Origin: an uncultured Desulfobacteraceae bacterium
GTDB lineage: Bacteria; Desulfobacterota; DSM-4660; Desulfatiglandales; B25-G16
Direction: 5' to 3'
Assembly (NCBI GenBank): GCA_964569645.1
Contig: CAZMUW010000001.1
Location: 1 to 26,383, forward strand
DNA length: 26,383 nucleotides
The translations under genes were made by a program, and so were the position numbers. The notes under the pieces were generated by a model, which saw only the letters and a program-made list of their open reading frames with translations, was not told the origin of the DNA and searched no databases. Each line of letters opens with the position of its first letter. Position 1 is the stretch's first letter. Positions 1 to 17,419 of this stretch are shown here, piece after piece.

Positions 1-1757
1 GGAGGGTCAGTGGGGTAACTATAGGTCTGGCCGTCCAGGAGAGCTTCAGGGATCCTCAGGCTGGGCACGCTCTGATAAACAGGATTCACGGTGGGCAGCT
101 GAGGCGTCCTCTGGTACAAATTAACGGCCATCGCTGTACCTTCTAAATCACCGGACAATCCCCCCTCCGCGTAACCTGGAAAGAAAAAGCGAGTGTCTAC
201 TGGAGTCCCCTGCTGCATATTACCCATATTGATGCCGTGTTTGCCAAGGCCCTGCATGGCCATCAGACAGACCATAGAACGAGCCCATTCATTTCCAGTG
301 GCGCAGCGGCAGGCACCTCCAAAACCGCTTAGCCCCCCGGCAGCCAGGTATGTCTTTTTGGATCCCCATTCTCGGGCCAGGGCTCTAACGTCTTTTGCGG
401 GGATTCCCGCTTCCTTCTCCTGCCACCCAGGCGTTTTTGGTATCCCGTCATCATACCCCAAGATGTAGTCTTTCCATTTGTCAAACCCAGTAGTCCGTGC
501 TGCGACATATTCTTTATCGTAGAGATCTTCGGTTATCCAGACATAGGCGATGGCGAGAGCCAGGGCATTACCCGTAGCCGGTCTCGGGGCAAACCACTTG
601 CCGCCAAGCAGGGCCACCGTATGATTATAGAATGGATCAATGTGTACCATTTTGATGCCTAACTCTTTTAGCCATTGACGGCGAACGGTGCCCTCGAATG
701 CACCGTAGACCCCGCTGGTGGCCTCCGGATCACTCGACCAGAACACAACCATTTCACATTCCTTGAGGATATCTTCAACGGTACCGTAGGTCTCTGCCGC
801 GCCAAGACGCATGCTATACCCCCAATGATGCATGGCCCCCCAGTACCATCCCTCCCAACTGTCCGGATTATGCATAACGTAAGTCTGACCAATGGAGTTC
901 ATAAACCTGGGTTTGGTGCTTAACCAGTAACCTATGTGTCCCCACGTATGGTGAGACCCACTGCTGCTCATAATAGCGCCCGGACCATAGTCTCTTTTGA
1001 CTCTTTTGATTTCGTTGGCTACGATATCCGTGGCCTCATCCCAGCTGATCCGCTCATAGCCTGATATCCCTCTGTTCTTGCAGTTACGTTCACCGTTCGG
1101 ATCGAAATCGACCCGTTTCAAAGGGTACAGTAGCCTGTCAGGTGAATAGACCATCGATTTCCAGGCAAACGTATACGGAGAGACCGTGGTCTTCCGCGGA
1201 GGGATAAACCTTTTGCCCCTGGCCTCAATTATCCAGGGCTGTGCGTCGCTATCATCAAATTCAATGGGTGTGATACGTATTATCTTACCGTCTTTCACGT
1301 AAACAAAGAGTGGCCCGCCATTGGTATTACTGGTATACCTTTTTACCCCGCTACCAACGTCTGTGCCATATTCTATACCTGCTGACTGCATCAGACTGAT
1401 TGTCTCCAAAAACCAGTAGGTCAACTCATCATCCCCTTCCAGCAGTAAATGAAAATTTTTCATGGCATTAATCAGGGATAAGTAGTTCCTGGGCGGCATG
1501 AGGAGTTTGAAAGCCAAACCAGCACTGCTAAAGTTCATAGAGACTTCGGGGCTGGGATGAATTCCTCTTTTTGAGATAATATTGCCGTCACTGAAAGTAA
1601 AATATCTGCCCTCTGAATTATCCATAACCTTTATTTGGGCGGTGAAATTTTTTTCTTTGAGACGATTTTTGAATGATGGATATTTTCTTGCCGCGCGTCT
1701 TAACATTTGCTTAAGCCCAAAAAGTATTATTGAAAATGCCTGATTCGAAAGTTTCAT
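1..1757 (-). CDS. Molybdopterin (Mo-bisPGD, DMSO reductase family) oxidoreductase, pyrogallol hydroxytransferase large-subunit-like, with ~130-aa N-terminal extension; 3'-truncated by window edge
   Basis: Hand-translated minus-strand frame, open from ATG at 1757 (RBS AGAGGGGA just upstream) to position 1 with no stop, which is why the ORF track omits it. Contains NTNGGPLFVYVKDGKIIRITP, YERISWDEATDIVA, SGSHHTWG, HNPDSWEGW (Ser Mo-ligand codon 858-860), FWSSDPE and FPGYAEGG, matching the Pelobacter acidigallici transhydroxylase alpha subunit as I recall it. Confidence 0.92.
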   Translation of the reverse strand, partial: MKLSNQAFSIILFGLKQMLRRAARKYPSFKNRLKEKNFTAQIKVMDNSEGRYFTFSDGNIISKRGIHPSPEVSMNFSSAGLAFKLLMPPRNYLSLINAMKNFHLLLEGDDELTYWFLETISLMQSAGIEYGTDVGSGVKRYTSNTNGGPLFVYVKDGKIIRITPIEFDDSDAQPWIIEARGKRFIPPRKTTVSPYTFAWKSMVYSPDRLLYPLKRVDFDPNGERNCKNRGISGYERISWDEATDIVANEIKRVKRDYGPGAIMSSSGSHHTWGHIGYWLSTKPRFMNSIGQTYVMHNPDSWEGWYWGAMHHWGYSMRLGAAETYGTVEDILKECEMVVFWSSDPEATSGVYGAFEGTVRRQWLKELGIKMVHIDPFYNHTVALLGGKWFAPRPATGNALALAIAYVWITEDLYDKEYVAARTTGFDKWKDYILGYDDGIPKTPGWQEKEAGIPAKDVRALAREWGSKKTYLAAGGLSGFGGACRCATGNEWARSMVCLMAMQGLGKHGINMGNMQQGTPVDTRFFFPGYAEGGLSGDLEGTAMAVNLYQRTPQLPTVNPVYQSVPSLRIPEALLDGQTYSYPTDP

Positions 1758-1829
1758 ATGGTCCCCTCTATAAATATCTCAGACCAAGTTTTCCGGACCG
1801 GGATTCCATCGAGAATTCCCCTATTCCCT

Positions 1830-2603
1830 CTAACCTGCTGTATAACCACCATCCACATAAAGGACGGCCCCGGTCATAAAGTCGGATGCTTTAGATGACA
1901 GATAGATCACTGTTCCTATGAAATCCTCCGGCTCACCCAATCTTCCAATGGGGATGCGTTTCAAAAAATTCTTATAAAACGCACTATCATCAAACATCCA
2001 TTGAGTTAGCTCAGTCCGGAATACAGTCGGTGCAATTGCGTTGACATTTATTTTATGAGGCCCCCACTCGCAGCCCAGTGATTTAGTCATGAGAGAGATC
2101 GCTCCCTTCGACGGGCTATAGGCAGCGTAATTACTCATACCCAGCATTCCCCGGGTAGATGAAATCGGAATAACCTTTCCCCCACGTCCCTGGTCAATCA
2201 TAACCTTCCCTACCTCTTTACAATACAACCAGGTCCCCTTGACGTTTGCATCCATGATCATTTCCCATTCCTCGAGGGGTTGTTCGACGATGGGATTTGG
2301 TTTATTTACGCCTGCCGCAGTAATTAAAATGTCGATACCACCGAATCTATCAACAGTGTCCTTAACCACTCGCTTTACATCGTCATGATTAATCGGTGAG
2401 CCTACAGAAAAGGCAGCATCGCCACCGGCCTTTTCTATTTCCTCAACAAGCGGCTTAAGCTTTTCCTCAGTCCGTCCGGTAGCCATAATTTTTGCACCGG
2501 CATCCGCCAGACCCAGCGAAGCAGCATGGCCAAAGCCTCCAGTAGCCCCAGTGATAAGCGCGACCTTTCCACCAACGTCAAAAAGTGATTTCGTTTCTTG
2601 CAT
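1830..2603 (-). CDS. Short-chain dehydrogenase/reductase, phloroglucinol-reductase-like, probably NADP(H)-dependent
   Basis: TGATGGFG Rossmann motif, TGR at the end of beta-2, catalytic S...YSPSK, NAIAP, DGGYTAG C-terminus, RBS AGAGAGGG. The SDR call is firm. The phloroglucinol-reductase subfamily call rests on recalled similarity (GSP at beta-3, TAAGxNxPxPIVxQ, PTVFRxxLTxWMFD, NFLKRxPxGRLGEPEDFIG). Confidence 0.9.
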   Translation of the reverse strand: MQETKSLFDVGGKVALITGATGGFGHAASLGLADAGAKIMATGRTEEKLKPLVEEIEKAGGDAAFSVGSPINHDDVKRVVKDTVDRFGGIDILITAAGVNKPNPIVEQPLEEWEMIMDANVKGTWLYCKEVGKVMIDQGRGGKVIPISSTRGMLGMSNYAAYSPSKGAISLMTKSLGCEWGPHKINVNAIAPTVFRTELTQWMFDDSAFYKNFLKRIPIGRLGEPEDFIGTVIYLSSKASDFMTGAVLYVDGGYTAG

Positions 2604-2640
2604 GGCAATACCCTCTCTAAATGGTTATTCGTAATCGTTC

Positions 2641-2888
2641 ACCCCCACCCTAACCCTCCCCCGTCAAGGGGGAGGGGACTTTAAAGGAGCACTATTATTC
2701 CCCCTCCCCTGGCGGGCTTACTATTACCCACATCTACCCTTCCCCTCCCAGGGGCATATGCTCTAAATTAAACAACCGCAAGAGTATGAATATCGAATAC
2801 TATCTCACAGCTTAGTCCCCCCTCTATGCCTCCCCAAGAAGAGAGGACTTATGGGTAATAGTCAACATCAAGGGGGAGGGGATAGTGT
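2641..2888. repeat. Composite REP/MITE-like palindromic region
   Basis: Hairpin CCCTCCCCC-gtcaa-GGGGGAGGG (2654-2676); 15-bp direct repeat TCAAGGGGGAGGGGA at 2664-2678 and 2868-2882; 11-bp inverted repeat ACTATTACCCA (2720-2730) / TGGGTAATAGT (2852-2862). Confidence 0.7.
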
Positions 2889-2902
2889 TCAAACCAATAT
2901 GG

Positions 2903-2933
2903 ATGCCCCGCGTGGAAGCGCGGGGAGCTTCAC
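2903..2933 (+). mobile_element. IS200/IS605-type right-end-like hairpin (solo end / PATE-like relic)
   Basis: Stem CCCCGCG(2906-2912)-TGGAAG-CGCGGGG(2919-2925) followed by AGCTTCAC, resembling the GCCCCG...CGGGGAG..TTCAC right ends of IS605-family elements. No transposase adjacent. Confidence 0.5.
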
Positions 2934-3135
2934 TGGAGACTCTTCGCCCGGAAATAACTATGTCAGAGAATCAAAGAGATGGATGACAGTATCAAGTGAT
3001 GAACTGCTGACTGAGTTACATATTTATGGCCTTCTCAGCTCTTCGAAGGTACTTGCAGAGAGAGATCAGCATTTTTTTCTGAAGACCTGGAACCGTGTCA
3101 AGCAAGAAAGCCTCTAAGAATATGGGGGTTCGAGG

Positions 3136-4038
3136 TTACGCGATCAGGACATCCTTTTCCCAGCCCAGCTTGAGAACATGGATTCGGTCCGGCCGGCTGT
3201 TGCCCAGCCCGAATCGGGTGTCGGCTGCTGCAATGTGCCGGGGCGGTGGGCTGATGGGCCTTCCCATCCCGAAGAAGGCATCTCGCTTGGCCTGGATAAT
3301 CCGGGCGCCCGTAGTATCTGCGGCCACCGGATCGGTGCCTACGATCAGGCCGCAGTAGCGCCACGTGTGCCGACGGCTAAAGTGGTGGGGCCCGATGCCG
3401 TGAAACAGCGGCGTCAGCATCACCAGGATGTTGAGACGGGTTTTGTCCATGACATGGGGCAGCTTCCAGATAGCGCCCAGGTTCTCGCAGGCGTTGCCAT
3501 GGTACTTCGAGGGTCTGGGGATGAACATGATGTAGTTCTTGATGAGGGTGCCAAGGCCGGACCAGTAGTGGGTCCGCATGGGGCGAACGTTGATCAGGGC
3601 CGTGGACCGATTGAAGACGGGATTCCGCAACACTCCCCGATCATCGGCTGTCATGTTTTCCTTCTTGACACCCGAGTCAAGCAGGCGCTTCCGGATAGCC
3701 ACCTCCAACGGTTTTGGGGTTGGGAGATAGTACCAAACGTTGCTCTTAATGCCTACTATATCAGTGGGCCTGACCAACTGCTTCCAGGCGGATACTGGAT
3801 CAGGTGTATCGAGGAGGGTTGTTACAGCTTGGTCCAGCATTCTCTGCAAAATGACGGGCACGGGCAGCCCTTGTCTATCAAGGACGTTTTTGTCACGTAC
3901 CAATACCACCCGGCTCTTTCCGGGATTTTTATCGTGTGAATCCTCCAGCAGCGGAAGTCCCATGAGGCTTCCCATGGCCACGCATGAGCTGGCACGTATA
4001 AAATCACGCCGTGTAATGATCATTTTCTCTTCTGCCAT
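3136..4038 (-). CDS. DUF362 family protein with twin-arginine (Tat) signal peptide
   Basis: N-terminal TRRDFIR plus hydrophobic stretch. DUF362-like segments DIVGIKSN, INVRPMRTH, IKNYI and GTDPVAAD. Confidence 0.8.
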   Translation of the reverse strand: MAEEKMIITRRDFIRASSCVAMGSLMGLPLLEDSHDKNPGKSRVVLVRDKNVLDRQGLPVPVILQRMLDQAVTTLLDTPDPVSAWKQLVRPTDIVGIKSNVWYYLPTPKPLEVAIRKRLLDSGVKKENMTADDRGVLRNPVFNRSTALINVRPMRTHYWSGLGTLIKNYIMFIPRPSKYHGNACENLGAIWKLPHVMDKTRLNILVMLTPLFHGIGPHHFSRRHTWRYCGLIVGTDPVAADTTGARIIQAKRDAFFGMGRPISPPPRHIAAADTRFGLGNSRPDRIHVLKLGWEKDVLIA

Positions 4039-4105
4039 ATGACCAAACTCCGTCTTTCATATACCCTGCCTCCTCACCATACTTTGCGGCTAAGATTAAC
4101 CACAA

Positions 4106-5038
4106 CTAATTTCGAGAAGTTGTTCCCGTTACTCTTTTTAAAAGGCTCCTGGCGAGCTGCCGGCTGTCGGTCTCCAAAACTATCGCCAGCAGCTTATCCT
4201 TTGCGGCAGCGGCGGACCACTTTCCGTTTTCCAGCAAGACCACGCCTGTTGAGTCTGCTTCGGGCAGGTAATGCCTTGAAAAGCTTGCAAGGGCTTTTTC
4301 CGCTTTTCCTACACTGGGGTACATGACCAGAAGCAGTCTGGCATATTCTCCGCCCCGCTGGTACATGGCAAGGGCAGCATCCGTGTGAGGCCCAAGGTTA
4401 AGGATGTTTTCGTCTGCTAGATAGAAGTGGTAGTTCAGCACAATATGGTGATGAAGGTATCGGACACTCCTGGGCTGAAGTCCCTCCGGGGGCAGTTGCA
4501 AAAGGATCCGTGGCTTGGGGCCCTGGGCAGTAATGAGCGAAGCCACGACCTTGCCCAGCTCCTTAACAGCTTTTACGGCTAGGGCCGTTTCCTCTTCCGC
4601 GTAAATGGAGACGAAGAATCGATCTTTCCAGAAGCTCAGCCAGCCAGACCGGTAAAGGGCACCTTGTCCCACGTCTAATGCTTCTCCGTCCTGGTCGTGG
4701 GTGAAAACCCCAAAAGCATCTTCCGAAGATGCCATTTCGAAGATGTCCAGAGCGATGGGAGGGCCTTTGGGGGTTGTATAGCGGCGGGAAAGGCACTTCC
4801 GCATGTTGTAGGCCCTGTAGACCTCACCTGCGCCGTCGATATAGTCGAAAATGGTTTCATCATCGAAAAAGCGGTCCTCCGGTTCTGCAATCCAGCCCTT
4901 TATTTGGTTTGGTAGAGCCGCATGTAAAACATCGAGAGAATCTGCATAGGATTTCTGAATCATCAAAAGCGCCGAACCGCCTATCAGTAATGCGATAAGG
5001 AAGAAAAATAGTACCTTAGTCGGGAGAGCTCCTTTCAT
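4106..5038 (-). CDS. Exported protein, DUF6599-like
   Basis: N-terminal signal/TM segment; DETIFDYIDGAGEVYRAY and IFEMxSSEDAFGVF motifs; lies directly upstream of the DUF362 gene on the same strand. Confidence 0.65.
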   Translation of the reverse strand: MKGALPTKVLFFFLIALLIGGSALLMIQKSYADSLDVLHAALPNQIKGWIAEPEDRFFDDETIFDYIDGAGEVYRAYNMRKCLSRRYTTPKGPPIALDIFEMASSEDAFGVFTHDQDGEALDVGQGALYRSGWLSFWKDRFFVSIYAEEETALAVKAVKELGKVVASLITAQGPKPRILLQLPPEGLQPRSVRYLHHHIVLNYHFYLADENILNLGPHTDAALAMYQRGGEYARLLLVMYPSVGKAEKALASFSRHYLPEADSTGVVLLENGKWSAAAAKDKLLAIVLETDSRQLARSLLKRVTGTTSRN

Positions 5039-5259
5039 AAAGGCTTCCTCGTGCCATAGTTACAGAACGATGCGACCACCATTTCAAGGTGATTTTGTGG
5101 CTAAATGAGCTATTTTACTATACCATAACCTGGATCTATCTCAAAACTATTGATAGCCTCTCAAAGTCTTCCCCAGCTGAAATGTCAGGCACCTCTTCAT
5201 CCTCCAGCCGTCCTATCAATTGAGACAGGGAGTAGTACGGAGCAAATTTAAGGCTTCAC

Positions 5260-6057
5260 TCAAAGAGCAGCAACCATGGCAGCTAACTTCTCTCTGCTTA
5301 TCCTCAGATAGTCCCTGTCCCTTGAGAAGACCTCAAGGGTTACTGTCTCGTCGTATCCGATTCCCTTGAGGGCCTTGATGATCTTCAGGAAATCGATGGT
5401 CCCTACCCCGATAGGAAGATGATTGTCCTCTTTGCCGAAGTTATCGGTTGCGTGGATATGGCCAATTCGATCATAAAACCTCTCGATAAAATCCAGGGCC
5501 TTCTTGCCTCCTTTGCTCTCAATATGCGCATGCCCTGTATCGAGGGTCAGCTTGAGTGTCGAAAACCTCTCGAAGACCTCGACAAAGTCCTCCGGATCGA
5601 CGAGTGAATGGAATCGGGGAAACATGTTCTCGATGCAAAGACAGATTCCGAGTTGATCGGCCTTTTCTACAATGGCCTCGAGACTCTTGAGGGCATATTG
5701 TCTTGCCTGATCCATCACAAAGACGGCGAGTCCTACAATATAGCTCGGATGCAGAACAACTTTAAGGGGCCGAAGATCGGCCGCGACCTCGAGGGATTCG
5801 AGTACCTCATTCAGGGATGTTTCTCTCAGGCTATCGGTGAGATCTGCCGTGGAGACAAAGGTCGGAAGATGACAAATGAGTCCCATCTTACAGCGATCTA
5901 AGGTCCTCAATAGCTCTTCTTTCTGTTGACGGATCATCCTGTAGTGTGCCTGAGGAGGATCCATGGCCAACTCCAGGTAATCAAATCCCAGCCCTGAAAT
6001 TGACTCAAGCTCTTTAAGGAATGGCCTGATGGGGAAATTCATGGCCCCGTACAGCAT
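5260..6057 (-). CDS. Sugar-phosphate isomerase/epimerase (AP endonuclease 2 / XylA-like TIM barrel)
   Basis: Metal-binding motifs CIENMFP, LDTGHA, HIHATDN, NHLPIGVG and TLEVF. Start placed at ATG 6057 (MLYGAMNF) because AGGAGGTGAT at 6074-6065 is a perfect SD and overlaps the track's GTG at 6069. Confidence 0.85.
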   Translation of the reverse strand: MLYGAMNFPIRPFLKELESISGLGFDYLELAMDPPQAHYRMIRQQKEELLRTLDRCKMGLICHLPTFVSTADLTDSLRETSLNEVLESLEVAADLRPLKVVLHPSYIVGLAVFVMDQARQYALKSLEAIVEKADQLGICLCIENMFPRFHSLVDPEDFVEVFERFSTLKLTLDTGHAHIESKGGKKALDFIERFYDRIGHIHATDNFGKEDNHLPIGVGTIDFLKIIKALKGIGYDETVTLEVFSRDRDYLRISREKLAAMVAAL

Positions 6058-6414
6058 CGGTATTATCACCTCCTTTCAGGGCTTCCATACCATATCCTTT
6101 CCTTCCAAACAACCATAATCTATCCATTTGATTGAACATAAGAGAGTCCCGCTCCCAGCGTTCTCCTTGAGAAAAAAACGAAGATCGGAAATGAGAAGAA
6201 ATGTGCTCGAACGCCTGTGCATCTGGCTGGGCTCACTGCGCACTTGCTCCCCAGGAAGTGATTTTAAAAAGTGATTTTTTGTCTTGACAATGGGGGCCAT
6301 ATCATGAGAGCTTTCTTTTCGATGGATCAGTAGGTACATGCAATTATATCGAATTAATTCCTAAACCCGGCCATGGTGAAGATAAGATATAGTTCATGAA
6401 GAAAGGAGAAAACG

Positions 6415-7854
6415 ATGGCTGTCAAGACTGTAGAGGAGTACTACGACTCACTGAAAGGCCTGCATCCAACCACCTATATTCTGGGAGAAAAGGTAGAAAA
6501 CCCTTATAAGCACCCATTGATCAGGCACATGCTGGCAGGAGTTGCCAAGACCTATGACCTTGCTCATGATCCGGAGGGTAAAAATTATCTGGTAGCCGAA
6601 TCCGAGCTGATTGGAGAGGAGGTTAGCCGCTTCGTCAAGTTCTACAAAAGCAGGGATGACCTCCTGGCCAAGGTCAGAATGCTGAAATTCCTGGCCCAGA
6701 GAATCGGCACCTGCTTTATGCGGTGCACAGGTATGGATGCCATGAACTCCGTAGGGGTAGAGGCCTACAACTGTGACAAGAAATACGGCACCGATTATTG
6801 GGATAGACTCCTGAATTTTGTCAAGCACGTGCAGAAGAACGACTTTGTTGTCTTTAGTGGTGTGACCGATGTCAAGGGTGACAGATCCCTCCGCCCATCG
6901 GAGCAGAAAGACCCGGACATGTACGTGCATGTGGTAGAGAAGAAAAACGACGGTATTGTAGTCAGAGGTGCCAAGATACACCAGACAGGCTCTCTCTGCG
7001 CTCACTGGGGACTGATAGTGCCCACCAGAGAGATGCGCGAGCCAGACAAAGACTATGCCGTCTGTTTTGCTGTCCCGGTAGATGCCGAGGGCATGATTCA
7101 CGTTTACGGCAGGGGCACCCTGGAAGCCAGGGCCCTTGAGGATTGTGACCTCGGTAATGTTGAATACAGCAAGTTCGCGCCCATGGTCATTCTCAATGAT
7201 GTCTTTGTGCCCTGGGAGCAGGTGTTTTTGTGTGGCGAATATGAGTTTGCCGGCCCGATGGTGAGGAACTTCGGTAACTACCACCGTCATTCACATGGTG
7301 GCTGCAAGTGTGGTGTTGGTGACGTTCTTATCGGCGCTGCGGCAGCAGCCGCTGAATACAACGGTCTTCCTAATGTTTCACATATCAACTCCAAATTAGC
7401 AGAGATGATCAAGACCATAGAGGCAATCTATGGCTGCTCCATAGCCGCATCAGTGGAGGCTGAGCCAACAGAGTCAGGCATCTACATGGTTGACCCGGTT
7501 CTCTCCAACACATCCAAGCTCTACGAGGGCAAGGAGCTGCAAGAGGTAATCCGGCTTATGATTGAGATTGCCGGCGGCATGGTGACTGATCTGCCTTCAG
7601 AGAAAGACATGGAGAATCCAGAAATTGGCCCATTACTCCAGAAATATCTCAAGGGCGTGGAGAACGTCCCCACAGAAGACAGGATGCGTCTCTTCAGGCT
7701 TATTGAAAAGCTGGCATTTGAGAGCCGGGATATCGTCTCCAACATCCATGGCGCCGGCTCACCAGAGACACACAAGATGACCATACTGCGGAATGCGGAT
7801 ATTGAGTCAAAGAAGATGCTGGCCAAGAATCTGGCGGGCATCAAGGAAGAATAA
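6415..7854 (+). CDS. 4-hydroxybutyryl-CoA dehydratase (AbfD)-like FAD/[4Fe-4S] protein with divergent active site
   Basis: CFMRC (C100, C104), YHRHSHGGCK (H290, C297), TDVKGDRSLRP, GAKIHQTG and HGAGSP motifs; RBS AAAGGAG upstream. Confidence 0.88.
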   Translation: MAVKTVEEYYDSLKGLHPTTYILGEKVENPYKHPLIRHMLAGVAKTYDLAHDPEGKNYLVAESELIGEEVSRFVKFYKSRDDLLAKVRMLKFLAQRIGTCFMRCTGMDAMNSVGVEAYNCDKKYGTDYWDRLLNFVKHVQKNDFVVFSGVTDVKGDRSLRPSEQKDPDMYVHVVEKKNDGIVVRGAKIHQTGSLCAHWGLIVPTREMREPDKDYAVCFAVPVDAEGMIHVYGRGTLEARALEDCDLGNVEYSKFAPMVILNDVFVPWEQVFLCGEYEFAGPMVRNFGNYHRHSHGGCKCGVGDVLIGAAAAAAEYNGLPNVSHINSKLAEMIKTIEAIYGCSIAASVEAEPTESGIYMVDPVLSNTSKLYEGKELQEVIRLMIEIAGGMVTDLPSEKDMENPEIGPLLQKYLKGVENVPTEDRMRLFRLIEKLAFESRDIVSNIHGAGSPETHKMTILRNADIESKKMLAKNLAGIKEE

Positions 7855-7905
7855 TAGAGACAGGCCAGTTTTTTATGTTCATAAAAAGAAGGAGGAGGTA
7901 TTCAG

Positions 7906-8742
7906 ATGAAAGCTGCATTCACACTTATACCTGCAGAGTCGAGGAGGCTGATCGCAAAGGCTGTTGTGCATATGGAAGAGATCAAGATCGCAAAACAGAA
8001 GGCCTATATCATACTCAACGGCGGGACAACGAATGGCTACATAGCGCAAGAGCTTCTTGGGATGAGAGACCTTGAGCCTCAAAAATTTACCGCAGGCACC
8101 AACACGCACAGGCTCCTGTGTGTGACCGATGCCGATAAGCGAACGCCTTTCCCAATAATCCTTTATAAGGGGGAGAGATCCTCAAAAACCCTTCCTGAAT
8201 CCTTACAGGACTTTCATATCGAGACCGTGCTGATCAAAGGGGCAAATGCAATAGACCCTGAAGGAAATGTCGGTGTGATCACATCGGGTTTCGACGGTGG
8301 AACGATTGGGGCGACTTACGGCACTGTAACATCCCAAGGGCTGAAGTATATTTTCGCCGTGGGGCTGGAGAAGCTGGTGGCCTCGGTTAAAGAGGCAGCA
8401 GCCTGGGCAGGCGGCAAGACCCTCGATTACACAATGGGAGCGGATTTCGGCATGTTCTGTATTCCAAACGGAACCGTTGTAACGGAGATTGAGGCACTCA
8501 AGATTTTAGCCGGCGTGGAGGCAAAACATATCGCATCCGGTGGTGTGGGCGAATCGGCCGGTTCAGTGGTCCTGGTGATTAAGGGGGAGGAGGCAAAGGT
8601 CAGAAAGGCAATCTCCATTGTCGAATCAATCAAGGGGGAGCCGGCCTTGAAGGGATTTAAAGGCACGTGCGAGAAATGTCCCTATGCTTGTAAGTTTGCG
8701 GGAAAAAAGGCGGGCGATCTCCCAGCATGGCTGACCGATTGA
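7906..8742 (+). CDS. Conserved hypothetical protein, possible NagB/RpiA/CoA-transferase-like fold, with C-terminal CxxCxxxC
   Basis: Strong RBS (AGGAGGAGGT), codon usage like its neighbour. Motifs GGTTNGYI, IKGANAID, GGTIG and VGLEKLV; CEKCPYAC at 8668-8691. Fold is inference. Confidence 0.75.
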   Translation: MKAAFTLIPAESRRLIAKAVVHMEEIKIAKQKAYIILNGGTTNGYIAQELLGMRDLEPQKFTAGTNTHRLLCVTDADKRTPFPIILYKGERSSKTLPESLQDFHIETVLIKGANAIDPEGNVGVITSGFDGGTIGATYGTVTSQGLKYIFAVGLEKLVASVKEAAAWAGGKTLDYTMGADFGMFCIPNGTVVTEIEALKILAGVEAKHIASGGVGESAGSVVLVIKGEEAKVRKAISIVESIKGEPALKGFKGTCEKCPYACKFAGKKAGDLPAWLTD

Positions 8743-8745
8743 TCA

Positions 8746-8850
8746 GGTAGGCATTTTTGGGCGAAGGGGTACTGTGTTAGCACAGTTGGTCCGGATGAAG
8801 AGCAAATAAGAAAATATGTGGGCAGATGAAGAAAGAGAGGAGAAGATCGC
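8746..8850 (+). pseudogene. tnpA: C-terminal fragment of IS200-family Y1 transposase (TnpA)
   Basis: 8746-8829 translates GRHFWAKGYCVSTVGPDEEQIRKYVGR*, matching the TnpA FWxxGYxxxTVG...IxxY helix with the catalytic Tyr (8815-8817). A shifted frame continues QMKKER. The N-terminal HUH part is absent. Confidence 0.85.
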
Positions 8851-8861
8851 AATATTTCGTT

Positions 8862-8938
8862 TGGTCGGGACGACTGGATTTGAACCAGCGACCCCAGCGT
8901 CCCGAACGCTGTGCTCTACCAGGCTGAGCCACGTCCCG
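8862..8938 (-). tRNA. tRNA-Pro (anticodon CGG)
   Basis: Reverse complement CGGGACGTGGCTCAGCCTGGTAGAGCACAGCGTTCGGGACGCTGGGGTCGCTGGTTCAAATCCAGTCGTCCCGACCA, 77 nt, with full cloverleaf, anticodon stem CAGCG/CGCTG, TTC T-loop and encoded CCA. Confidence 0.98.
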
Positions 8939-8960
8939 ACTTTATCTGATTGCCTTTTTG

Positions 8961-8989
8961 ATGATAGATATTCCCAAAAGAAAAGTAAA
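8961..8989 (-). promoter_or_regulatory. Putative sigma70 promoter for tRNA-Pro
   Basis: Minus strand TTTACT (8989-8984), 17-nt spacer, TATCAT (8966-8961), ~22 nt upstream of the tRNA 5' end. Confidence 0.5.
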
Positions 8990-9132
8990 CCCTGTTAGAT
9001 ATAAAACAGGGAATTATATCCCGTATGAAAAAACGAAATATTATTATATATATCATCGCCATGATTCTGCAAGTGTATTCTAACAGGGTAAAGAAAAATT
9101 GCCACAAATCCCAGGATAAGCTGAGAAGCCCG

Positions 9133-9717
9133 TTATTTGAGCCTTATTAAATTGATAAAATTCTCTAAGATCCTTTCTGTAGCTCCCCAGATAACCGCAT
9201 CCTTATAGATAAAGGCTGGGGTCTCAAAAATGTCCCCTTCATGATCTATGGAAAAAGGCTGTGGTTGAGAAGGATCTAAAAAAAACCTTAAGGGGACTTC
9301 AATCAAGTGCCCAACCTCTCTCCTGTTAATTGTAAATACATAGGGAAATGGTACCACTCCGACAAAAGGATGAATGATGAAGCGGGACATCATTGTAGGT
9401 ATATTATCGAGCTGACCCAGGATCTCTATATCCTCTTCTCTGATACCTATTTCCTCAAAGGTTTCCCTTTTTGCAGTACCTTCAAGGCTATCATCATCCT
9501 CATCCACTACGCCACCAGGAAAGGATACCTCGCCTTTATGATATTCTACTGTATTTGCTCGCTTCGTAAAAAGAAGCCAATATTGTTCATCTCTGATAAA
9601 TAAGGGCAAAAGGACAGAGGCCTGCGTATAATCAGCACCGTTGCCTTTGATCCTCTTTGGCTCTCTATGAGCCAAAATCGTCTTAAGATCCTCTTTAAGT
9701 TGATCCGGGTTTAGCAT
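9133..9717 (-). CDS. Nudix hydrolase, CoA pyrophosphatase (NudL/PCD1-like)
   Basis: LLFTKRA...HKGEVSFPGG motif, Nudix box GG..RETFEEIGI, and IWGATERIL. Confidence 0.92.
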   Translation of the reverse strand: MLNPDQLKEDLKTILAHREPKRIKGNGADYTQASVLLPLFIRDEQYWLLFTKRANTVEYHKGEVSFPGGVVDEDDDSLEGTAKRETFEEIGIREEDIEILGQLDNIPTMMSRFIIHPFVGVVPFPYVFTINRREVGHLIEVPLRFFLDPSQPQPFSIDHEGDIFETPAFIYKDAVIWGATERILENFINLIRLK

Positions 9718-9728
9718 ATCTATCCTTT

Positions 9729-10730
9729 TTAAATGGTTGTTGTTGGCTTATGGACTGGAGAGGTTGCCTTTTCAATAGTAGTTACAATACTTCCACCCCT
9801 AAATATAGTTACCCTTCCACTCGACTCAGAGATGACTAAGGCAACTGAATCTGTTACCCCGGTGATAGCCGCAGCGGATGAATGCCTGGCACCCAGACCC
9901 TGGGGCATGGGTTCCCCATGATAGGCGGCATTGAGATAGCTTCCAGCTGCCAGGACAACACCATCATCTCTTATGACAAAGGCCCCATCAATAGAGGAGA
10001 ACTCCTTTAATGTTTCTCGAACTTCGGGCTTACTGATATGCAAAACATCCTCAGCGTGTCCCTGGAAGGGATTGAGAACCAACTGGTGGGAATATTGAAG
10101 CACCTTTTTATGGTCACCCAGGACAAATGTACTTCCAATAGGCTTCCCTTCCCTACCCTCATATGCCATCTCCACGACCAAAGTAAGAAGAGATTCGAAT
10201 ATGTCATGCTTTATGTTCTTAGGGAAAGGGGAGTCTTCCGCGAAACTGACGATCTCGGATTCATCCCCTACCTTCAGTACCATTATGGTATCCATAAACC
10301 CCTTTTCCGGTTGTCCACCCACACATACAAGGATATCACCCTTAGATAATATTCCCTTGGAGATGCCTGCCAGAAAGCCGAACTTTAGATAACCATCTCT
10401 GGTCAGGTAAACATCAGGGAGCATAATGGTATTGCCCCTTAAGCCAGTAGCCTTTTCCAGGGATATTTCCCTTTTAGTTACCAGGATAATCTTAAACTTT
10501 TTTCCCTCCGCCTTCAAAATGGGGACAATGTCTGCTGCGGACTCCATGTTAACCAAGATAGCGTCGGCCTTGAGCTTATTTGCTATAGATATGGCCTGCT
10601 TAAGCATTAATTCAGTCCAATTTGCCGACTCTATCCTTTTAATTTCTGCACCACTCTCATCCCTGGCTCTCTTGCTACCAACAATAGATAACCTCTCCTC
10701 TTTTTTCTTTTTTAATTTATTTGGTTCCAC
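9729..10730 (-). CDS. Diadenylate cyclase, DacZ-like (N-terminal pyruvate-kinase-C-like domain plus DisA_N/DAC domain)
   Basis: EGREGKPIGSTFV, SIDGAFV (DGA), GLGARHSSAA and VISESSG motifs. Start placed at GTG 10730, 7 nt after AGGAG (10742-10738). The track's 10787 start lies inside a repeat. Confidence 0.88.
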   Translation of the reverse strand: MEPNKLKKKKEERLSIVGSKRARDESGAEIKRIESANWTELMLKQAISIANKLKADAILVNMESAADIVPILKAEGKKFKIILVTKREISLEKATGLRGNTIMLPDVYLTRDGYLKFGFLAGISKGILSKGDILVCVGGQPEKGFMDTIMVLKVGDESEIVSFAEDSPFPKNIKHDIFESLLTLVVEMAYEGREGKPIGSTFVLGDHKKVLQYSHQLVLNPFQGHAEDVLHISKPEVRETLKEFSSIDGAFVIRDDGVVLAAGSYLNAAYHGEPMPQGLGARHSSAAAITGVTDSVALVISESSGRVTIFRGGSIVTTIEKATSPVHKPTTTI

Positions 10731-10753
10731 AATCTTTCTCCTTTTACGTTTGA

Positions 10754-10823
10754 GGTTCGTTGGGTTTATTGTGTTTGTTGTGTTCACTATTAACTCAATA
10801 AACCCAACAAACCCGATAAACTC
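10754..10823. repeat. Palindromic element of 9-bp tandem units (copy 1)
   Basis: Arm GGTTCGTTG/GGTTTATTG/TGTTTGTTG/TGTTC then arm AACTCAATA/AACCCAACA/AACCCGATA/AACTC; between the pyrE stop and the dac start. Confidence 0.85.
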
Positions 10824-10828
10824 TAACG

Positions 10829-11587
10829 TTACTCCCTGCCATAGGTTTCCATGTATTTATCGAATTCCTCCTTTGTCACCTCATCCATGGCTCTTTTCTC
10901 CCCTGAGATAAAAAGAGGGATCTTATCACTATAAAGGTACTCCACTATCTCCCTGATACCGGCAACAGAAAAAAATGGGATACCTGTCCTTGAGGTTAAC
11001 TCTGCTATTGGATCTTGCCCTTTTTTATTCAGGATAACATTTCCCTCTTTATCATAGACTGCCGTTGTCTGCTCCCTATCTACAGCAATACCTAACCCTA
11101 TTATCTGATATTGAAAACTGTGAGACATAGATTCTTTATCAATCTTTTCTATAAGCTCATACTTTGTTTCCATAGAAGTTACAACATCATCTACAACAAA
11201 GATCCTGCAGCCATCAAAGAAGGTATTGTTCACAAAAAGGGCAGCAGATGAAGACCTCTCACCATGTTTTTTAGGCTCTTTCCTGTCGTAATCAAAGAGG
11301 AGATCATGGCCATGATAATGAAAAAGGGTAGCAGCTGTAGCTGACGCAATGGCACTTCCTTTGTAAGATGGCCCAACTATGATATCTATCTTATCTAAAA
11401 GGGATCTGCTAACGAGCATCTCAGCAAAGAAAGAGCCCAACTCAAGTAGTAATCGGCCAGTACTGAATCTACCCAGGTTGACAAAATAAGGAGTTGGCCT
11501 GCCATCTTTCAGAATCAGATCCCTATTAAAAAATAGGGCTCCTGTTTCCGCAAGGATCAAACTCAAGCGTTTTTTGTATTCTTCCAT
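10829..11587 (-). CDS. pyrE: Orotate phosphoribosyltransferase
   Basis: LKDGRPTPYFVN, GPSYKG, DRKEPKKHGE and PRPP loop VVDDVVTS. Confidence 0.9.
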   Translation of the reverse strand: MEEYKKRLSLILAETGALFFNRDLILKDGRPTPYFVNLGRFSTGRLLLELGSFFAEMLVSRSLLDKIDIIVGPSYKGSAIASATAATLFHYHGHDLLFDYDRKEPKKHGERSSSAALFVNNTFFDGCRIFVVDDVVTSMETKYELIEKIDKESMSHSFQYQIIGLGIAVDREQTTAVYDKEGNVILNKKGQDPIAELTSRTGIPFFSVAGIREIVEYLYSDKIPLFISGEKRAMDEVTKEEFDKYMETYGRE

Positions 11588-11699
11588 ATCTCAATTGTTA
11601 CAATATTTTAACCAAAAATCAATATGATATTCAACCCCTATAATGAACAAATAGGAGACAAAAATCCAGCCTTAAGGCAAAAAGATAAAAGGGCTTTTC

Positions 11700-11728
11700 T
11701 TGACAGATCAAAAAAGAGTTGATATAAA
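11700..11728 (+). promoter_or_regulatory. sigma70 promoter
   Basis: TTGACA (11700-11705), N17, TATAAA (11723-11728), upstream of RBS GGGAGG and the ATG at 11766. Confidence 0.7.
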
Positions 11729-11765
11729 AGATTAAAAGATTCTTTTAACATAGGGAGGTTTTGCT

Positions 11766-12023
11766 ATGGCTGAGGAAGAAGTTGGTGTGGTAATTAAATT
11801 TTTTACCAAGCCAGGTGTGGCAGCCCTAAAGATAACAAAGGGATCCATTAAAAAGGGTGATATATTAAAGTATAAAGGCCACACTACTGACTTTAACGAG
11901 GAGATAAAGAGTATGGAGATTGATAACCAGCCTGTAGATGAAGCCAGGGTTGGTGATACGACAGGTATTAAGGTAGAAGAGAGGGTAAGGGAAAAGGATG
12001 TAGCTTATAAGGTTGTGGACTAA
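11766..12023 (+). CDS. Small translation-elongation-factor-like beta-barrel protein (EF-Tu domain II / U32 C-terminal-like)
   Basis: VGVVIKFFTKPGVAA, IKKGDIL, GHTTDF, SMEIDNQPVDEA..G..GIKVxERVRExDxxYKV pattern; strong RBS and promoter. Confidence 0.85.
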   Translation: MAEEEVGVVIKFFTKPGVAALKITKGSIKKGDILKYKGHTTDFNEEIKSMEIDNQPVDEARVGDTTGIKVEERVREKDVAYKVVD

Positions 12024-12035
12024 GATAAAATCCTT

Positions 12036-12407
12036 TTAAGGGGAAGAGTTTAAATCAAAGCCACATCTTGCACAAAAATCCTCCTTTATCTGTTTAAAAC
12101 CACAGTTAGGACAGAGGACAAAATCCTGGTTGGAGGCTATGCTTATTTTTTCAGCAGGGGATTTAATCTCGAGGAATTCCCCTGCCTCCTGAATATTAAC
12201 TAACCCACCAGCATTAATAATGGTCTCGGCATATCTTCTGGCATCTGCTAAGCTTAAATCCCTCTTCAATACTACGGGTGCCTTTTTCATATATTTATCT
12301 AATGTAGAGTCAGAAACACCGAGTTTGGCCATATTTTGCATAAAAACCTCTGTATCAAGTGCTATACCAAAAAAGACAACCCTGTATTTCTTGTTCACTA
12401 TTCCCAA
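12036..12407 (-). CDS. Hypothetical protein, L7/L12-CTD-like region plus C-terminal Zn ribbon
   Basis: APVVLKRDLSLADARRY resembles L7/L12-CTD-like modules; CPNCG...CARCG. Start is TTG and uncertain. Confidence 0.65.
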   Translation of the reverse strand: MGIVNKKYRVVFFGIALDTEVFMQNMAKLGVSDSTLDKYMKKAPVVLKRDLSLADARRYAETIINAGGLVNIQEAGEFLEIKSPAEKISIASNQDFVLCPNCGFKQIKEDFCARCGFDLNSSP

Positions 12408-12603
12408 AAATTATTTTTTAATAGACTCAGAAATAGGACTTCTATGTCGATTTAAGACCAGATCAATTTTATGTCAAGACAAAAAGGGAATAATCTTACT
12501 ATTCTTTTGCTTGCATATAAATACTATCATGTGATAATAAGAGCAGCTTATTAATAATATCAGTTATACATAACAATCAGATTAGTAAGGAAATAGACAT
12601 AAT

Positions 12604-13584
12604 TTGCCTGAGCTATTAAACAAAAGGGAGCATATCAAAACCAAAAGGGTTACCTTCGATAATAATGAATTAGTAAGGAGTCTTTATGGAGAAAGGAGCA
12701 GCAATCTCCGATTGATAGAAAAAAGACTAAACATTATAGTTAACATTAGAGGAAATGACCTCATTTTGCAGGGTGGCCTTTCGGAGTTAGAGATGGCCGA
12801 AAATCTGTTAACCCAGCTATATGGACTGCTTAAAGAAGGATATCCTATTTACGATAGGGATGTTGATTATTCCCTGAGAATCCTGGAGAGTAACCATAGA
12901 GCAGAGCTTAAGCGAATTTTTTTAGACAGGGTATACATCCCATCAAAAAAAAGGACAATAACACCCAAAAGTATCAACCAGAAGAATTATATTGATAGCA
13001 TAAGAAAATACGATATTGTATTTGGCATAGGACCAGCTGGTACAGGAAAGACATATCTTGCTATGGCAATGGCCATATCATCTTTAATAAAAAAGGAGAT
13101 AAACAGGGTAATCTTAGCAAGGCCAGCGGTGGAGGCAGGCGAAAAATTAGGTTTTTTGCCAGGAGATCTATACGAAAAGGTGAATCCTTACCTTAGACCA
13201 CTCTATGATGCCCTCCATGATATGATGGATTTTGAGGGTGCCTCACGCTTTATTCAAAATGGTGTAATAGAGGTAGCCCCTTTAGCCTTTATGAGGGGGA
13301 GAACACTTAATGATGCATTTGTCATATTAGATGAGGCCCAAAATGTAACACCTGAACAGATGAAGATGTTTCTGACCCGCCTTGGCTTTAGCTCCAAGAC
13401 TGTCATAACCGGGGATATTACCCAGACAGACCTGCCTGAAGGGAAGGCTTCAGGCCTTATACAGGCCAGGGATATTTTAGCCCATATAGAAGAGATAAGA
13501 TTTGTTTATTTTGGGAGGGAAGATGTTATCAGGCATCCATTGGTTCAAGAAATTATAGATGCCTATGATAAACTGGATACTTGA
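12604..13584 (+). CDS. phoH: PhoH family ATPase (PhoH2/YbeZ-like, N-terminal KH-like region)
   Basis: GPAGTGKT, LxRPAVEAGEKLGFLPGD, MRGRT, DEAQN and GDITQTDLP. TTG start. Confidence 0.95.
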   Translation: MPELLNKREHIKTKRVTFDNNELVRSLYGERSSNLRLIEKRLNIIVNIRGNDLILQGGLSELEMAENLLTQLYGLLKEGYPIYDRDVDYSLRILESNHRAELKRIFLDRVYIPSKKRTITPKSINQKNYIDSIRKYDIVFGIGPAGTGKTYLAMAMAISSLIKKEINRVILARPAVEAGEKLGFLPGDLYEKVNPYLRPLYDALHDMMDFEGASRFIQNGVIEVAPLAFMRGRTLNDAFVILDEAQNVTPEQMKMFLTRLGFSSKTVITGDITQTDLPEGKASGLIQARDILAHIEEIRFVYFGREDVIRHPLVQEIIDAYDKLDT

Positions 13585-13603
13585 TACTGGAAACTTGATA
13601 CAC

Positions 13604-13649
13604 TTTAACTTTAGGCACTTTAGGCACTTATAACTTTAGGCACTTTCAT
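13604..13649. repeat. ACTTTAGGC 9-mer tandem repeat cluster
   Basis: Units at 13608-13616, 13617-13625 and 13633-13641. The 24-mer ACTTATAACTTTAGGCACTTTCAT (13626-13649) recurs exactly at 16412-16435, and a 14-mer recurs inverted at 26338-26351. Confidence 0.85.
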
Positions 13650-13658
13650 ATAAATATC

Positions 13659-16082: not shown

Positions 16083-16419
16083 CTGTGAGCTGAGCTTACT
16101 CTTTACAGACGATAAACATATAGCAGAGTTAAATTACCGTTTTCTCAAAAGAGAAGGCCCGACAAATGTTCTTGCCTTTCCGATGAGAGGTGATGAACGC
16201 AGCGAGCCTGAGACACCAATGCTGGGGGATATAGTCATATCCTTAGATGCTGCTATGAGGGATGCGAAAAGAGGTGGTGAGAGCCTTAACAATGCTATTG
16301 ATAGACTTTTAATCCATGGTCTTTTACACCTTTTAGGTTATGACCACGAAAGGTCAGAGGAGGAAGCCCGGCGGATGGAAGAAGAGACGGAAAGGTTGTT
16401 GGCGGCGTTTAACTTATAA
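15982..16419 (+). CDS. ybeY: rRNA maturation endoribonuclease YbeY
   Basis: LNYRFLKREGPTNVLAFP, LGDIVIS and HGLLHLLGYDH. Start taken at ATG 15982, overlapping the HD gene tail. Confidence 0.95.
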   Translation: MEIQITCQYPLKNIDPGKIKMKLTGILKGLEYHDCELSLLFTDDKHIAELNYRFLKREGPTNVLAFPMRGDERSEPETPMLGDIVISLDAAMRDAKRGGESLNNAIDRLLIHGLLHLLGYDHERSEEEARRMEEETERLLAAFNL

Positions 16420-16433
16420 CTTTAGGCACTTTC

Positions 16434-16820
16434 ATGATTTATGGCATTGGCATAGATCTTGTGACAATAAAGAGGATTGGAAGAGTAATCGATAGATGGG
16501 GGAAAAGGTTTATAAATAGGATATTTACTGCCCGGGAAATTAATTTCTGTTTTCAAGGTACAAAATCAGTGTCTTCCCTTGCCCTGCGTTTTGCTGCCAA
16601 GGAAGCCTTCTCAAAGGCGATAGGATTGGGTATGAGAAAGGGCATCAGGTGGCAAGATATTGAGATTGTTCAAAACCCAAGTGGCCGGCCTGACCTTAAT
16701 GTAACTGGAAAGGCCCTTAGTTTCTGTCGTAAGGAGGGAATAAGAAGGTGGTATGTTAGCCTTTCAGATGAGGGTGACTATGGCATAGCTGTGGTAGTAC
16801 TTGAAAAAGGCTCTACATAA
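16434..16820 (+). CDS. acpS: Holo-[acyl-carrier-protein] synthase
   Basis: GIGIDLV, RFAAKEAFSKAIGLG, GRP and VSLSD motifs. Confidence 0.95.
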   Translation: MIYGIGIDLVTIKRIGRVIDRWGKRFINRIFTAREINFCFQGTKSVSSLALRFAAKEAFSKAIGLGMRKGIRWQDIEIVQNPSGRPDLNVTGKALSFCRKEGIRRWYVSLSDEGDYGIAVVVLEKGST

Positions 16821-16822
16821 TA

Positions 16823-16903
16823 GTGTTTGTTGAGTTTGTTGAGTTCATAGAGTTCATAGGGTTCAACCCAATAAACACAATAAACCCAAGAAACCTAATA
16901 AAC
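16823..16903. repeat. Palindromic element of 9-bp tandem units (copy 2)
   Basis: GTGTTTGTT/GAGTTTGTT/GAGTTCATA/GAGTTCATA/GGGTT-C-AACCCAATA/AACACAATA/AACCCAAGA/AACCTAATA/AAC, immediately after the acpS stop. Confidence 0.85.
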
Positions 16904-16912
16904 TACTGGGCC

Positions 16913-17419
16913 TTGAGATTGAAAGAAATTTCTGTCAAATATTTGACACCTTCAGTTGAAAAAACTGTCTGGTTAGGCCAGCAATTGGGAACCCAATTAG
17001 TCGATGGCGATATTATCGCATTAATCGGTGACCTGGGTGGCGGTAAGACCTGGTTCACAAAAGGAGTGGGCATTGGCCTTGAGATTGCCCCGGATTATAT
17101 AGTCAGTCCAACATTCACCCTTGTTAATGAATACCAGGGTATGCACCAACTTTTTCATATAGACCTTTATCGGCCTAAAGACAAAACTGAGATTATGGCT
17201 TTAGATCTGGAAGATTACTTTTCAGGAGAAGGGATAGTTGTTATAGAGTGGGCGGACCGTTGGCCAGGGGAGCTCCCGGAAGAAAGAATTCAGGTTGACT
17301 TAAGGATGGTAGATAAGCATACCAGGGAACTTAGATTTTCGGGTTCTCATCCCAGGGCTAAAGAAATTATAAGGGCGCTAAAAGAAAGGGTGGGCTTCTC
17401 TTTGAAGGAGATTAAATAA
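16913..17419 (+). CDS. tsaE: tRNA threonylcarbamoyladenosine biosynthesis ATPase TsaE
   Basis: GDLGGGKT, SPTFTLVNEY, HIDLYR and VIEWA. Start uncertain (TTG 16913 or 16919); the track's first 30 aa are the translated repeat. Confidence 0.93.
   Translation: MRLKEISVKYLTPSVEKTVWLGQQLGTQLVDGDIIALIGDLGGGKTWFTKGVGIGLEIAPDYIVSPTFTLVNEYQGMHQLFHIDLYRPKDKTEIMALDLEDYFSGEGIVVIEWADRWPGELPEERIQVDLRMVDKHTRELRFSGSHPRAKEIIRALKERVGFSLKEIK

Follow-up and report, generated by a model that had tools for sequence, protein, structure and literature searches.

The closest described relatives of the protein examined here are the 4-hydroxybutyryl-CoA dehydratase/vinylacetyl-CoA delta-isomerase AbfD of Clostridium aminobutyricum (PDB 1U8V; EC 4.2.1.120 and 5.3.3.3), the oxygen-tolerant 4-hydroxybutyryl-CoA dehydratase (4HBD) of Nitrosopumilus maritimus (6VJR), and, farther away, HpaB, the oxygenase of 4-hydroxyphenylacetate 3-monooxygenase (2YYG). 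Two cycles of CO2 fixation, 3-hydroxypropionate/4-hydroxybutyrate and dicarboxylate/4-hydroxybutyrate, have AbfD as their signature enzyme, as do two routes to butyrate. The AbfD variants E257Q, E455Q, and Y296F/W are said to have had no activity or less than 1% in work by Zhang et al. from 2015. A secondary statement in a preprint names T190, E257, Y296, and E455 as important for the dehydratase activity and describes T190 as hydrogen bonded to the flavin N5 in 4HBD; a requirement for R90, also claimed in an earlier note on the DNA described here, is not confirmed there. Residue roles in AbfD are taken below from this secondary source and the reported variants. Here, we describe an AbfD-like gene in a stretch of 26,383 nucleotides (nt) (the window) from an uncultured Desulfobacteraceae bacterium (contig CAZMUW010000001.1). 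The encoded protein retains the iron-sulfur ligands of AbfD and lacks its catalytic residues, and it belongs to a sister group of AbfD, for which we propose a substrate of its own.

The gene is an intact open reading frame (ORF), whose 479-amino-acid (aa) product contains the Pfam domains HpaB_N (6.9e-87) and HpaB (4.1e-64) in the acyl-CoA-dehydrogenase-like architecture of AbfD (about 480 to 490 aa) and aligns to 1U8V over its full length. In a search of PDB sequences, the top matches are 1U8V (2.8e-137) and 6VJR (2.9e-132), and HpaB monooxygenase structures rank next at 1e-47 or weaker (2YYG, 1.6e-47). The protein is 46% identical to 1U8V and 45% identical to 6VJR, whereas these two share 60%, so it is farther from both than they are from each other. 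It shares Pfam domains and fold family with HpaB, but it scores far below the cut-offs of the NCBIfam HpaB equivalogs TIGR02309 (184.5 versus 480.2 bits) and TIGR02310 (119.4 versus 885.2 bits). Representatives at the distance of HpaB lack the Cys ligands, unlike the window protein.

Residue equivalences were taken from a HMMER alignment and, independently, from 90 sequences aligned with MAFFT; the two agree. In both, the cluster ligands C99, C103, H292, and C299 of AbfD correspond to C100, C104, H290, and C297 of the window protein, T190 corresponds to T191, K300 corresponds to K298, and HGAG is found at residues 445 to 448. The fold, R102, and the longer motif HGAGSP are likewise shared with AbfD, and the same ligands are present in 6VJR. 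Given the retained ligands, the window protein is predicted to bind a [4Fe-4S] cluster. In contrast, Y296 is replaced by H294 (7294-7296), E257 by A255 (7177-7179), and E455 by S442 (7738-7740), and R90 and Q101 by K91 and M102; in 6VJR, the canonical Glu, Tyr, and Glu are all present. The retained and replaced residues that the earlier note lists had all been read correctly, down to the codon coordinates. Although the window protein has a 3-residue deletion just upstream of S442, the equivalence of S442 and E455 is not affected by it, because the position lies in an ungapped anchor 3 residues before the invariant HGAGSP. Beyond the exchanges Y296H, E455S, E257A, G255K, Q101M, and R90K, the window protein differs from AbfD at about 20 more clade-specific positions.

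The replacements are a clade signature and not a one-off. A search of 5.8 billion proteins gave at least 8,000 matches, of which the best 120 clusters were analyzed. These clusters, from metagenome-assembled genomes (MAGs) of Desulfobacteraceae, Desulfatiglans, Dehalococcoidia, and Chloroflexota, are 79 to 92% identical to the window protein and are publicly named 4-hydroxybutyryl-CoA dehydratase or HpaB-domain protein. All 120 have C100, M102, C104, K253, H290, H294, C297, K298, E436, D439, and S442, while position 255 is A, C, S, V, or T and never Glu; neither they nor the window protein have Glu or Tyr at the catalytic positions. The gained Lys253 is as diagnostic as the three losses (Tyr296, Glu455, and Glu257).

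A scan of GTDB species genomes yielded 80 loci in three groups, which we describe by their residues at AbfD positions 90, 99, 101, 103, 190, 257, 292, 296, 299, 300, and 455. Clade A (at least 70% identity to the window protein) includes Zixibacteria (90%), Desulfatiglandales, Dehalococcoidia, Syntrophaceae, and Leptospirales and reads K/R-C-M-C-T-(A/S)-H-H-C-K-S. Clade B (50 to 55% identity) includes Desulfobacteraceae, Peptococcaceae, Syntrophorhabdales, Dethiobacter, and others and reads R-C-Q-C-T-(C/A)-H-H-C-K-S. Canonical AbfD (46 to 51% identity), from bacteria and archaea, reads R-C-Q-C-T-E-H-Y-C-K-E without exception in 33 sequences. The H294/S442 signature is present in all 51 genomic loci of clades A and B, across many phyla. 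Together, the two clades also differ from canonical AbfD at G255K, N442K, G446E, A449D (beside the 3-residue deletion), T394D, and Q466H. The window protein carries K253, H294, S442, E436, D439, and H453, no Glu at 255, and intact Fe-S ligands. In a neighbor-joining tree built on corrected identity distances, clade A, clade B, and their union are each monophyletic in 50 of 50 bootstrap replicates, with the window protein inside the union, and canonical AbfD, including 1U8V and 6VJR, forms a separate group in 47 of 50.

Identity within the clade is very high, and the window gene is under strong purifying selection, with dN/dS values of 0.06 to 0.10 against five homologs. The earlier note had considered the replacements to be coordinated changes. 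This holds for H294, S442, and the loss of Glu, which are conserved under purifying selection, but not for R90K and Q101M, which are confined to the window's subclade (clade B keeps R and Q), nor for Ala at position 255, which is not fixed. Full-text literature searches returned no characterization of an AbfD-like enzyme with the H294/S442 signature. On the basis of these sequence comparisons, we conclude that clades A and B are a widespread, conserved, uncharacterized sister group of canonical AbfD, and that the window gene is a functional member of it.

The neighborhoods of clade A and B genes also differ from those of canonical AbfD. We counted genes within 6 kb of the 51 clade genes, with 30 canonical loci as a comparison; ORFs of the loci were called and clustered by simple procedures of our own, and the clusters were named with Pfam and NCBIfam. 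A succinyl-CoA synthetase (SCS)-like pair is present in 28 of the 51 clade loci, a four-subunit 2-oxoacid:ferredoxin oxidoreductase (OFOR) of the 2-oxoglutarate (Kor-like) type in 13, and both together in none. One or the other adjoins the AbfD-like gene in 41 of 51 loci, and 6 of the 10 loci with neither, the window's own contig among them, include less than 2 kb of upstream sequence; for that contig, the longer upstream part covered by the window has no genes of either type. By contrast, the SCS-like pair is found in none of the 30 canonical loci and the Kor-like OFOR in one. These loci carry instead a sigma-54 activator, crotonase/3-hydroxyacyl-CoA dehydrogenase (HBD)/thiolase genes, and 4-hydroxybutyrate CoA-transferase (AbfT), the last in 7 of 30 canonical loci and in 0 of 51 clade loci. 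Pfam counts over the neighbors agree with this contrast. Hence, of the features of AbfD, the window protein has the architecture, the [4Fe-4S] ligands, and the equivalents of Thr190, Lys300, and HGAG, but not the catalytic Tyr/Glu/Glu, the tree position, or the pathway linkage.

The SCS alpha subunit scores above its NCBIfam equivalog cut-off and the beta subunit just under, and their nearest structure is Thermus SCS. The OFOR alpha subunit is nearest to 1YD7 (P. furiosus 2-keto acid:ferredoxin oxidoreductase alpha, 350.9 bits), followed by 8YS5 (2-oxoglutarate synthase alpha, 236.2 bits) and 6N2N (M. marinus KorA, 195.4 bits). In 25 of the 51 clade loci, there is also a 2-hydroxyacid oxidoreductase from one of at least four unrelated families; the enzymes include Ldh_2, D-2-hydroxyacid dehydrogenase, a GlpO/LhgO-like DAO protein with Pyr_redox_2 and DUF1667, LutAB-like proteins, and, in some loci, LarA-type 2-hydroxyacid isomerases. 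The nearest structure to the Ldh_2 neighbor is L-sulfolactate dehydrogenase 2X06, an enzyme that also reduces oxaloacetate and 2-oxoglutarate. The DAO-type neighbor resembles L-2-hydroxyglutarate oxidase and GlpO. In loci L022, L033, L035, L037, L042, L045, and L049, a trio directly follows the clade A/B gene, consisting of a GlpO/LhgO-like DAO with a BFD [2Fe-2S] domain, a Pyr_redox_2 flavoprotein, and a DUF1667 protein; 2-hydroxyglutarate and glycerol-3-phosphate are candidate substrates of this trio.

The two types of loci differ in their further content. In Dehalococcoidia, the SCS-like pair and the AbfD-like gene stand by themselves as a module, surrounded by housekeeping genes (purine synthesis and repair). 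Genes for a CUT1 ABC transporter, for IlvD/Edd, GarD-like, or DHDPS-family enzymes, and for an iron-containing alcohol dehydrogenase (Fe-ADH) or an aldehyde:ferredoxin oxidoreductase are frequent in the OFOR-type loci. The nearest relatives of the window protein (88 to 90% identity; loci L002, L007, L009, and L010) have the gene order OFOR - AbfD-like - Ldh_2, and L002 and L009 also have a CUT1 sugar ABC transporter, a GntR/FCD regulator, and a short-chain dehydrogenase/reductase (SDR) upstream and an aldehyde:ferredoxin oxidoreductase downstream. GntR/FCD regulators are frequent in the clade loci. No neighboring genes in any of the 51 loci support 3-hydroxy-5-oxohexanoyl-CoA, a lysine- or phloroglucinol-type substrate that had been put forward in the earlier note.

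Because the SCS-like and Kor-like neighbors are mutually exclusive, we infer that each takes the place of the other in supplying a single acyl-CoA. Succinyl-CoA is the one ordinary compound that enzymes of both types produce, which points to it as the acyl-CoA supplied. We therefore propose, with a probability of roughly 0.45, that the clade enzymes use FAD and [4Fe-4S] to act on an acyl-CoA derived from a dicarboxylate (succinyl-CoA or one closely related to it) and not on 4-hydroxybutyryl-CoA; the reaction is probably different from that of AbfD. Succinyl-CoA would come from succinate or from 2-oxoglutarate, itself formed from 2-hydroxyglutarate by the 2-hydroxyacid enzymes. The enzyme would then bind a C4 or C5 dicarboxylate-derived CoA thioester, which could be succinyl-CoA or, for example, 2-hydroxyglutar-5-yl-CoA, with the distal oxyanion at the His-ligated iron in place of the 4-hydroxyl group of 4-hydroxybutyryl-CoA. 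His290 would take the alpha-proton and the flavin would activate the beta position, and the outcome would be an elimination, a double-bond shift, or a decarboxylation rather than the dehydration of 4-hydroxybutyryl-CoA. With 2-hydroxyglutar-5-yl-CoA, an AbfD-type gamma-dehydration would give glutaconyl-CoA. Succinyl-CoA and 4-hydroxybutyryl-CoA differ only at C4 (carboxylate versus CH2OH), which would fit the residue balance of the clade: two Glu lost, Lys and His gained, and several residues smaller. These changes may lend weak support to a bulkier, anionic distal group. The different substrate or chemistry suggested in the earlier note is thus consistent with a separate clade that has its own neighborhood, while the new function itself is one that we infer.

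Several points weigh against this proposal. The reaction assigned to the clade is a guess. The charge argument is weak, because new acidic residues (E436, D439, and D392) also appear. Because C4 of succinyl-CoA bears no leaving group, an AbfD-type elimination would not be directly transferable. The window copy has no SCS-like or OFOR genes within 26 kb, so the context argument relies on homologs with 50 to 90% identity, and the gene calling and clustering behind the neighborhood counts were our own and crude. An AlphaFold2 model built from 34 sequences (79 to 92% identical) reached a predicted local distance difference test score (pLDDT) of only 50, too poor to place the changed residues. The sugar-acid dehydratases (IlvD/Edd, GarD-like, and DHDPS-family), CUT1 ABC ATPase, and Fe-ADH of the OFOR-type loci point equally to neutral hydroxyacyl-CoA substrates. 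Finally, in the clade B locus L034, the AbfD-like gene is directly followed by thiolase, HBD, and crotonase genes, as one would expect if the product were crotonyl-CoA.

The L034 arrangement could instead mean that the clade has the function of AbfD and converts 4-hydroxybutyryl-CoA to crotonyl-CoA with a rebuilt catalytic set, in which His294 would stand in for Tyr296 and E436/D439 for Glu455. The scaffold, the cluster ligands, T191, and K298 are common to both groups, and the new conserved acids lie by the 3-residue deletion beside S442. The precursor of 4-hydroxybutyrate in known pathways is succinyl-CoA. The SCS-like and Kor-like neighbors might therefore mark a route from succinyl-CoA to 4-hydroxybutyrate, or the SCS-like enzyme might activate 4-hydroxybutyrate; Fe-ADH (L039) and aldehyde:ferredoxin oxidoreductase (L002, L009, and L018) could make 4-hydroxybutyrate from succinate. 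We nevertheless consider this function doubtful. E257, Y296, and E455, which the preprint reports as important for dehydratase activity, are replaced in the clade, yet the catalytic residues are invariant in 33 of 33 canonical sequences, bacterial and archaeal alike. True 4HBDs share 60% identity across domains, well above the 45 to 46% of the window protein. Moreover, AbfT is missing from all clade loci, the 25 Pfam families that occur most often in the clade neighbors do not include aldehyde dehydrogenase, and butyrate-pathway genes as in L034 are exceptional, being found in one clade B locus. The warning in the earlier note that annotation as abfD or HpaB would be wrong is borne out insofar as public names are used in this way for proteins that lack the catalytic residues and miss the HpaB cut-off; for abfD, it is qualified by the chance, small in our view, that the function is that of AbfD after all.

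The sugar-acid genes of the OFOR-type loci could also be explained by a dehydratase/isomerase for neutral beta,gamma-dihydroxyacyl-CoA in a short anaerobic sugar-acid route. An aldonate would be converted to a 2-keto-3-deoxy acid and, by the OFOR, to 3,4-dihydroxybutyryl-CoA or a longer homolog, and removal of the gamma-hydroxyl group would then give acetoacetyl-CoA. The gene order of the nearest relatives and the CUT1 sugar transporter in L002 and L009 fit this route, as do the IlvD/Edd and GarD-like dehydratases in L030, L034, and L047, the DHDPS-family enzyme in L039, and, in the window itself, the upstream genes for a xylose-isomerase-like TIM barrel and an SDR. It would leave unexplained the commoner SCS-like partner (28 of 51 loci) and the stand-alone modules of SCS-like and AbfD-like genes, and we know of no OFOR for 2-keto-3-deoxy acids. 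The sugar-acid genes fit the dicarboxylate proposal as well, because oxidative sugar-acid pathways also end at 2-oxoglutarate. On balance, we regard a neutral sugar-acid substrate as unlikely.

In a more novel version of the dicarboxylate proposal, the clade would catalyze, on succinyl-CoA itself, a reaction that has no characterized counterpart, such as a beta-decarboxylation or a cobalamin-free rearrangement. In a B12-independent beta-decarboxylation assisted by flavin and Fe-S cluster, CO2 would depart from the enoxy-radical intermediate where the AbfD mechanism loses the beta-proton, and propionyl-CoA would be formed. We consider this version, in either form, quite improbable.

A further possibility, and a very unlikely one, is C-S cleavage of organosulfonates with release of sulfite, in which the distal anion would be a sulfonate; the substrate would be 3-sulfopropionyl-CoA or else sulfoacetyl-CoA, formed from sulfopyruvate or sulfoacetate. 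For the Ldh_2 neighbor, L-sulfolactate dehydrogenase is the best match in both NCBIfam (267 bits, cut-off 500) and the PDB (2X06), and the GarD-like proteins lack a SAF domain, as does the large subunit of sulfolactate sulfo-lyase. SCS and an acyl-CoA-dehydrogenase-fold desulfinase are a known pairing in Advenella, and the hosts are mostly sulfur-cycling anaerobes. However, every match is below its family cut-off, neither a sulfite exporter nor dsr genes were noted in the neighborhoods, the taxa are simply typical sediment anaerobes, and the chemistry is without precedent in the AbfD/HpaB family.

Last, an HpaB-type two-component flavin monooxygenase or an inactive relic, suggested by the HpaB_N/HpaB domains and by the name HpaB N-terminal domain-containing protein in some sources, is highly improbable given the low equivalog scores, structure matches of 1e-47 against 1e-137 for AbfD, Fe-S ligands that are invariant in the best 120 clusters, no flavin reductase domain among the scanned neighbors of the gene in the window, and, for a relic, the low dN/dS and very high within-clade identity.

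The 26-kb window contains no SCS-like, OFOR, or AbfT genes and no genes leading from crotonyl-CoA to acetyl-CoA. The genes upstream of the AbfD-like gene are divergent and encode the xylose-isomerase-like TIM barrel, DUF6599, DUF362, and SDR proteins. The positions of the features discussed are collected in the table below.

Features of the AbfD-like gene and its immediate surroundings (positions in the 26,383-nt window)
Feature	Position	Strand	Remarks
Ribosome-binding site AAGGAG	6403..6408	+	6 nt upstream of ATG; direct sequence reading
AbfD-like FAD/[4Fe-4S] enzyme gene (predicted)	6415..7854	+	Clade A of the H294/S442 sister group; intact ORF, 479 aa
CxxxC segment	6712..6726	+	C100 6712-6714, M102 6718-6720, C104 6724-6726; two cluster ligands and Q101M, from alignments
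T191	6985..6987	+	T190 of AbfD, retained; from alignment
K253-F254-A255	7171..7179	+	Lys gained (Gly255 in AbfD), Glu257 lost; clade-specific positions
HRHSHGGCK	7282..7308	+	H290 ligand, H294 for Tyr296, C297 ligand, K298; from alignments
E436...D439..S442..H445-G-A-G	7720..7758	+	S442 for Glu455; E436 and D439, new acids by the 3-residue deletion; from alignments
278-aa ORF	7906..8742	+	Starts 51 nt past the stop of the AbfD-like gene; ends in CEKCPYACKFAGKK
tRNA-Pro(CGG)	8862..8938	-	Right edge of the higher-GC segment holding the AbfD-like gene

The 278-aa ORF has no Pfam or NCBIfam match. It is a member of a large, very conserved orphan family with 3,797 database relatives, the best 120 of which are 75 to 97% identical and all named "hypothetical protein." Elsewhere, members of the family lie near IOR-like OFOR/DUF169/FAA-hydrolase/HpcH genes or aldehyde:ferredoxin oxidoreductases, not AbfD-like genes. 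As a partner subunit of the AbfD-like protein, the ORF was rejected, since it is missing from the other 80 loci and its homologs occur in unrelated contexts.

Base composition changes at tRNA-Pro (1-9000 versus 9000-26383), with the higher-GC segment lying downstream of the 3' end of the tRNA. The GC content at third codon positions is 0.45 to 0.70 to the left of the tRNA, the AbfD-like gene included, and 0.38 to 0.46 in the housekeeping genes to its right. This suggests that the higher-GC segment was horizontally acquired; a search of the window left of the gene for an att-like repeat of the tRNA-Pro 3' end found none. Positions 1-1829 contain no ORF of at least 100 aa on either strand and no Rfam match, and their GC content falls from 0.55 to 0.42; this region may be a decayed or noncoding far end of the segment. 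A 21-nt direct repeat (AAAAAGTGATTT..TCTTG, 86% identity) is present at 2580-2600 (start of the SDR gene) and 6266-6286 (upstream of the AbfD-like gene); it may represent an operator common to both genes or a coincidental match. Elsewhere in the window, a gene on the minus strand (9729-10787) encodes a diadenylate cyclase (DAC domain) fused to a DacZ_P/pyruvate-kinase-C-like sensor domain, and a NUDIX hydrolase gene (9133-9717) lies directly downstream on the same strand.

The clade described here is not the only departure from AbfD. Among representatives at 50% identity, the Fe-S branch contains dozens of groups with the C..C..H..C ligands but other residues at the catalytic positions, such as RCLCS.HKCK and the recurrent RCYCSTHGCK; these groups are 30 to 44% identical to the window protein. 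Representatives P0243-P0353 include many such AbfD-like subfamilies with very different catalytic-position residues. To our knowledge, none of the other Fe-S-bearing subfamilies has been characterized. By these comparisons, the window's clade is one of many variants and the one nearest to canonical AbfD, and the Fe-S branch of the HpaB/AbfD superfamily appears to be largely unexplored.

The KEGG ortholog K14534 (abfD) serves as a marker gene for autotrophy and butyrate formation in metagenome surveys (for example, PMC10645885). Because the clade is named AbfD yet has neither the catalytic residues nor the context of the pathway, conclusions about pathways drawn from such matches are doubtful; the clade members that carry the name include MAGs of Dehalococcoidia, Desulfobacterota, Zixibacteria, and Firmicutes. 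The clade is a well-defined target for new FAD/[4Fe-4S] acyl-CoA chemistry at the 2-oxoglutarate/succinyl-CoA node, and the true substrate could be prepared in vitro with the adjoining ligase or OFOR. If decarboxylation or rearrangement of succinyl-CoA were the true reaction, the clade would provide a cobalamin-independent link at the succinyl-CoA node in widespread sediment anaerobes.

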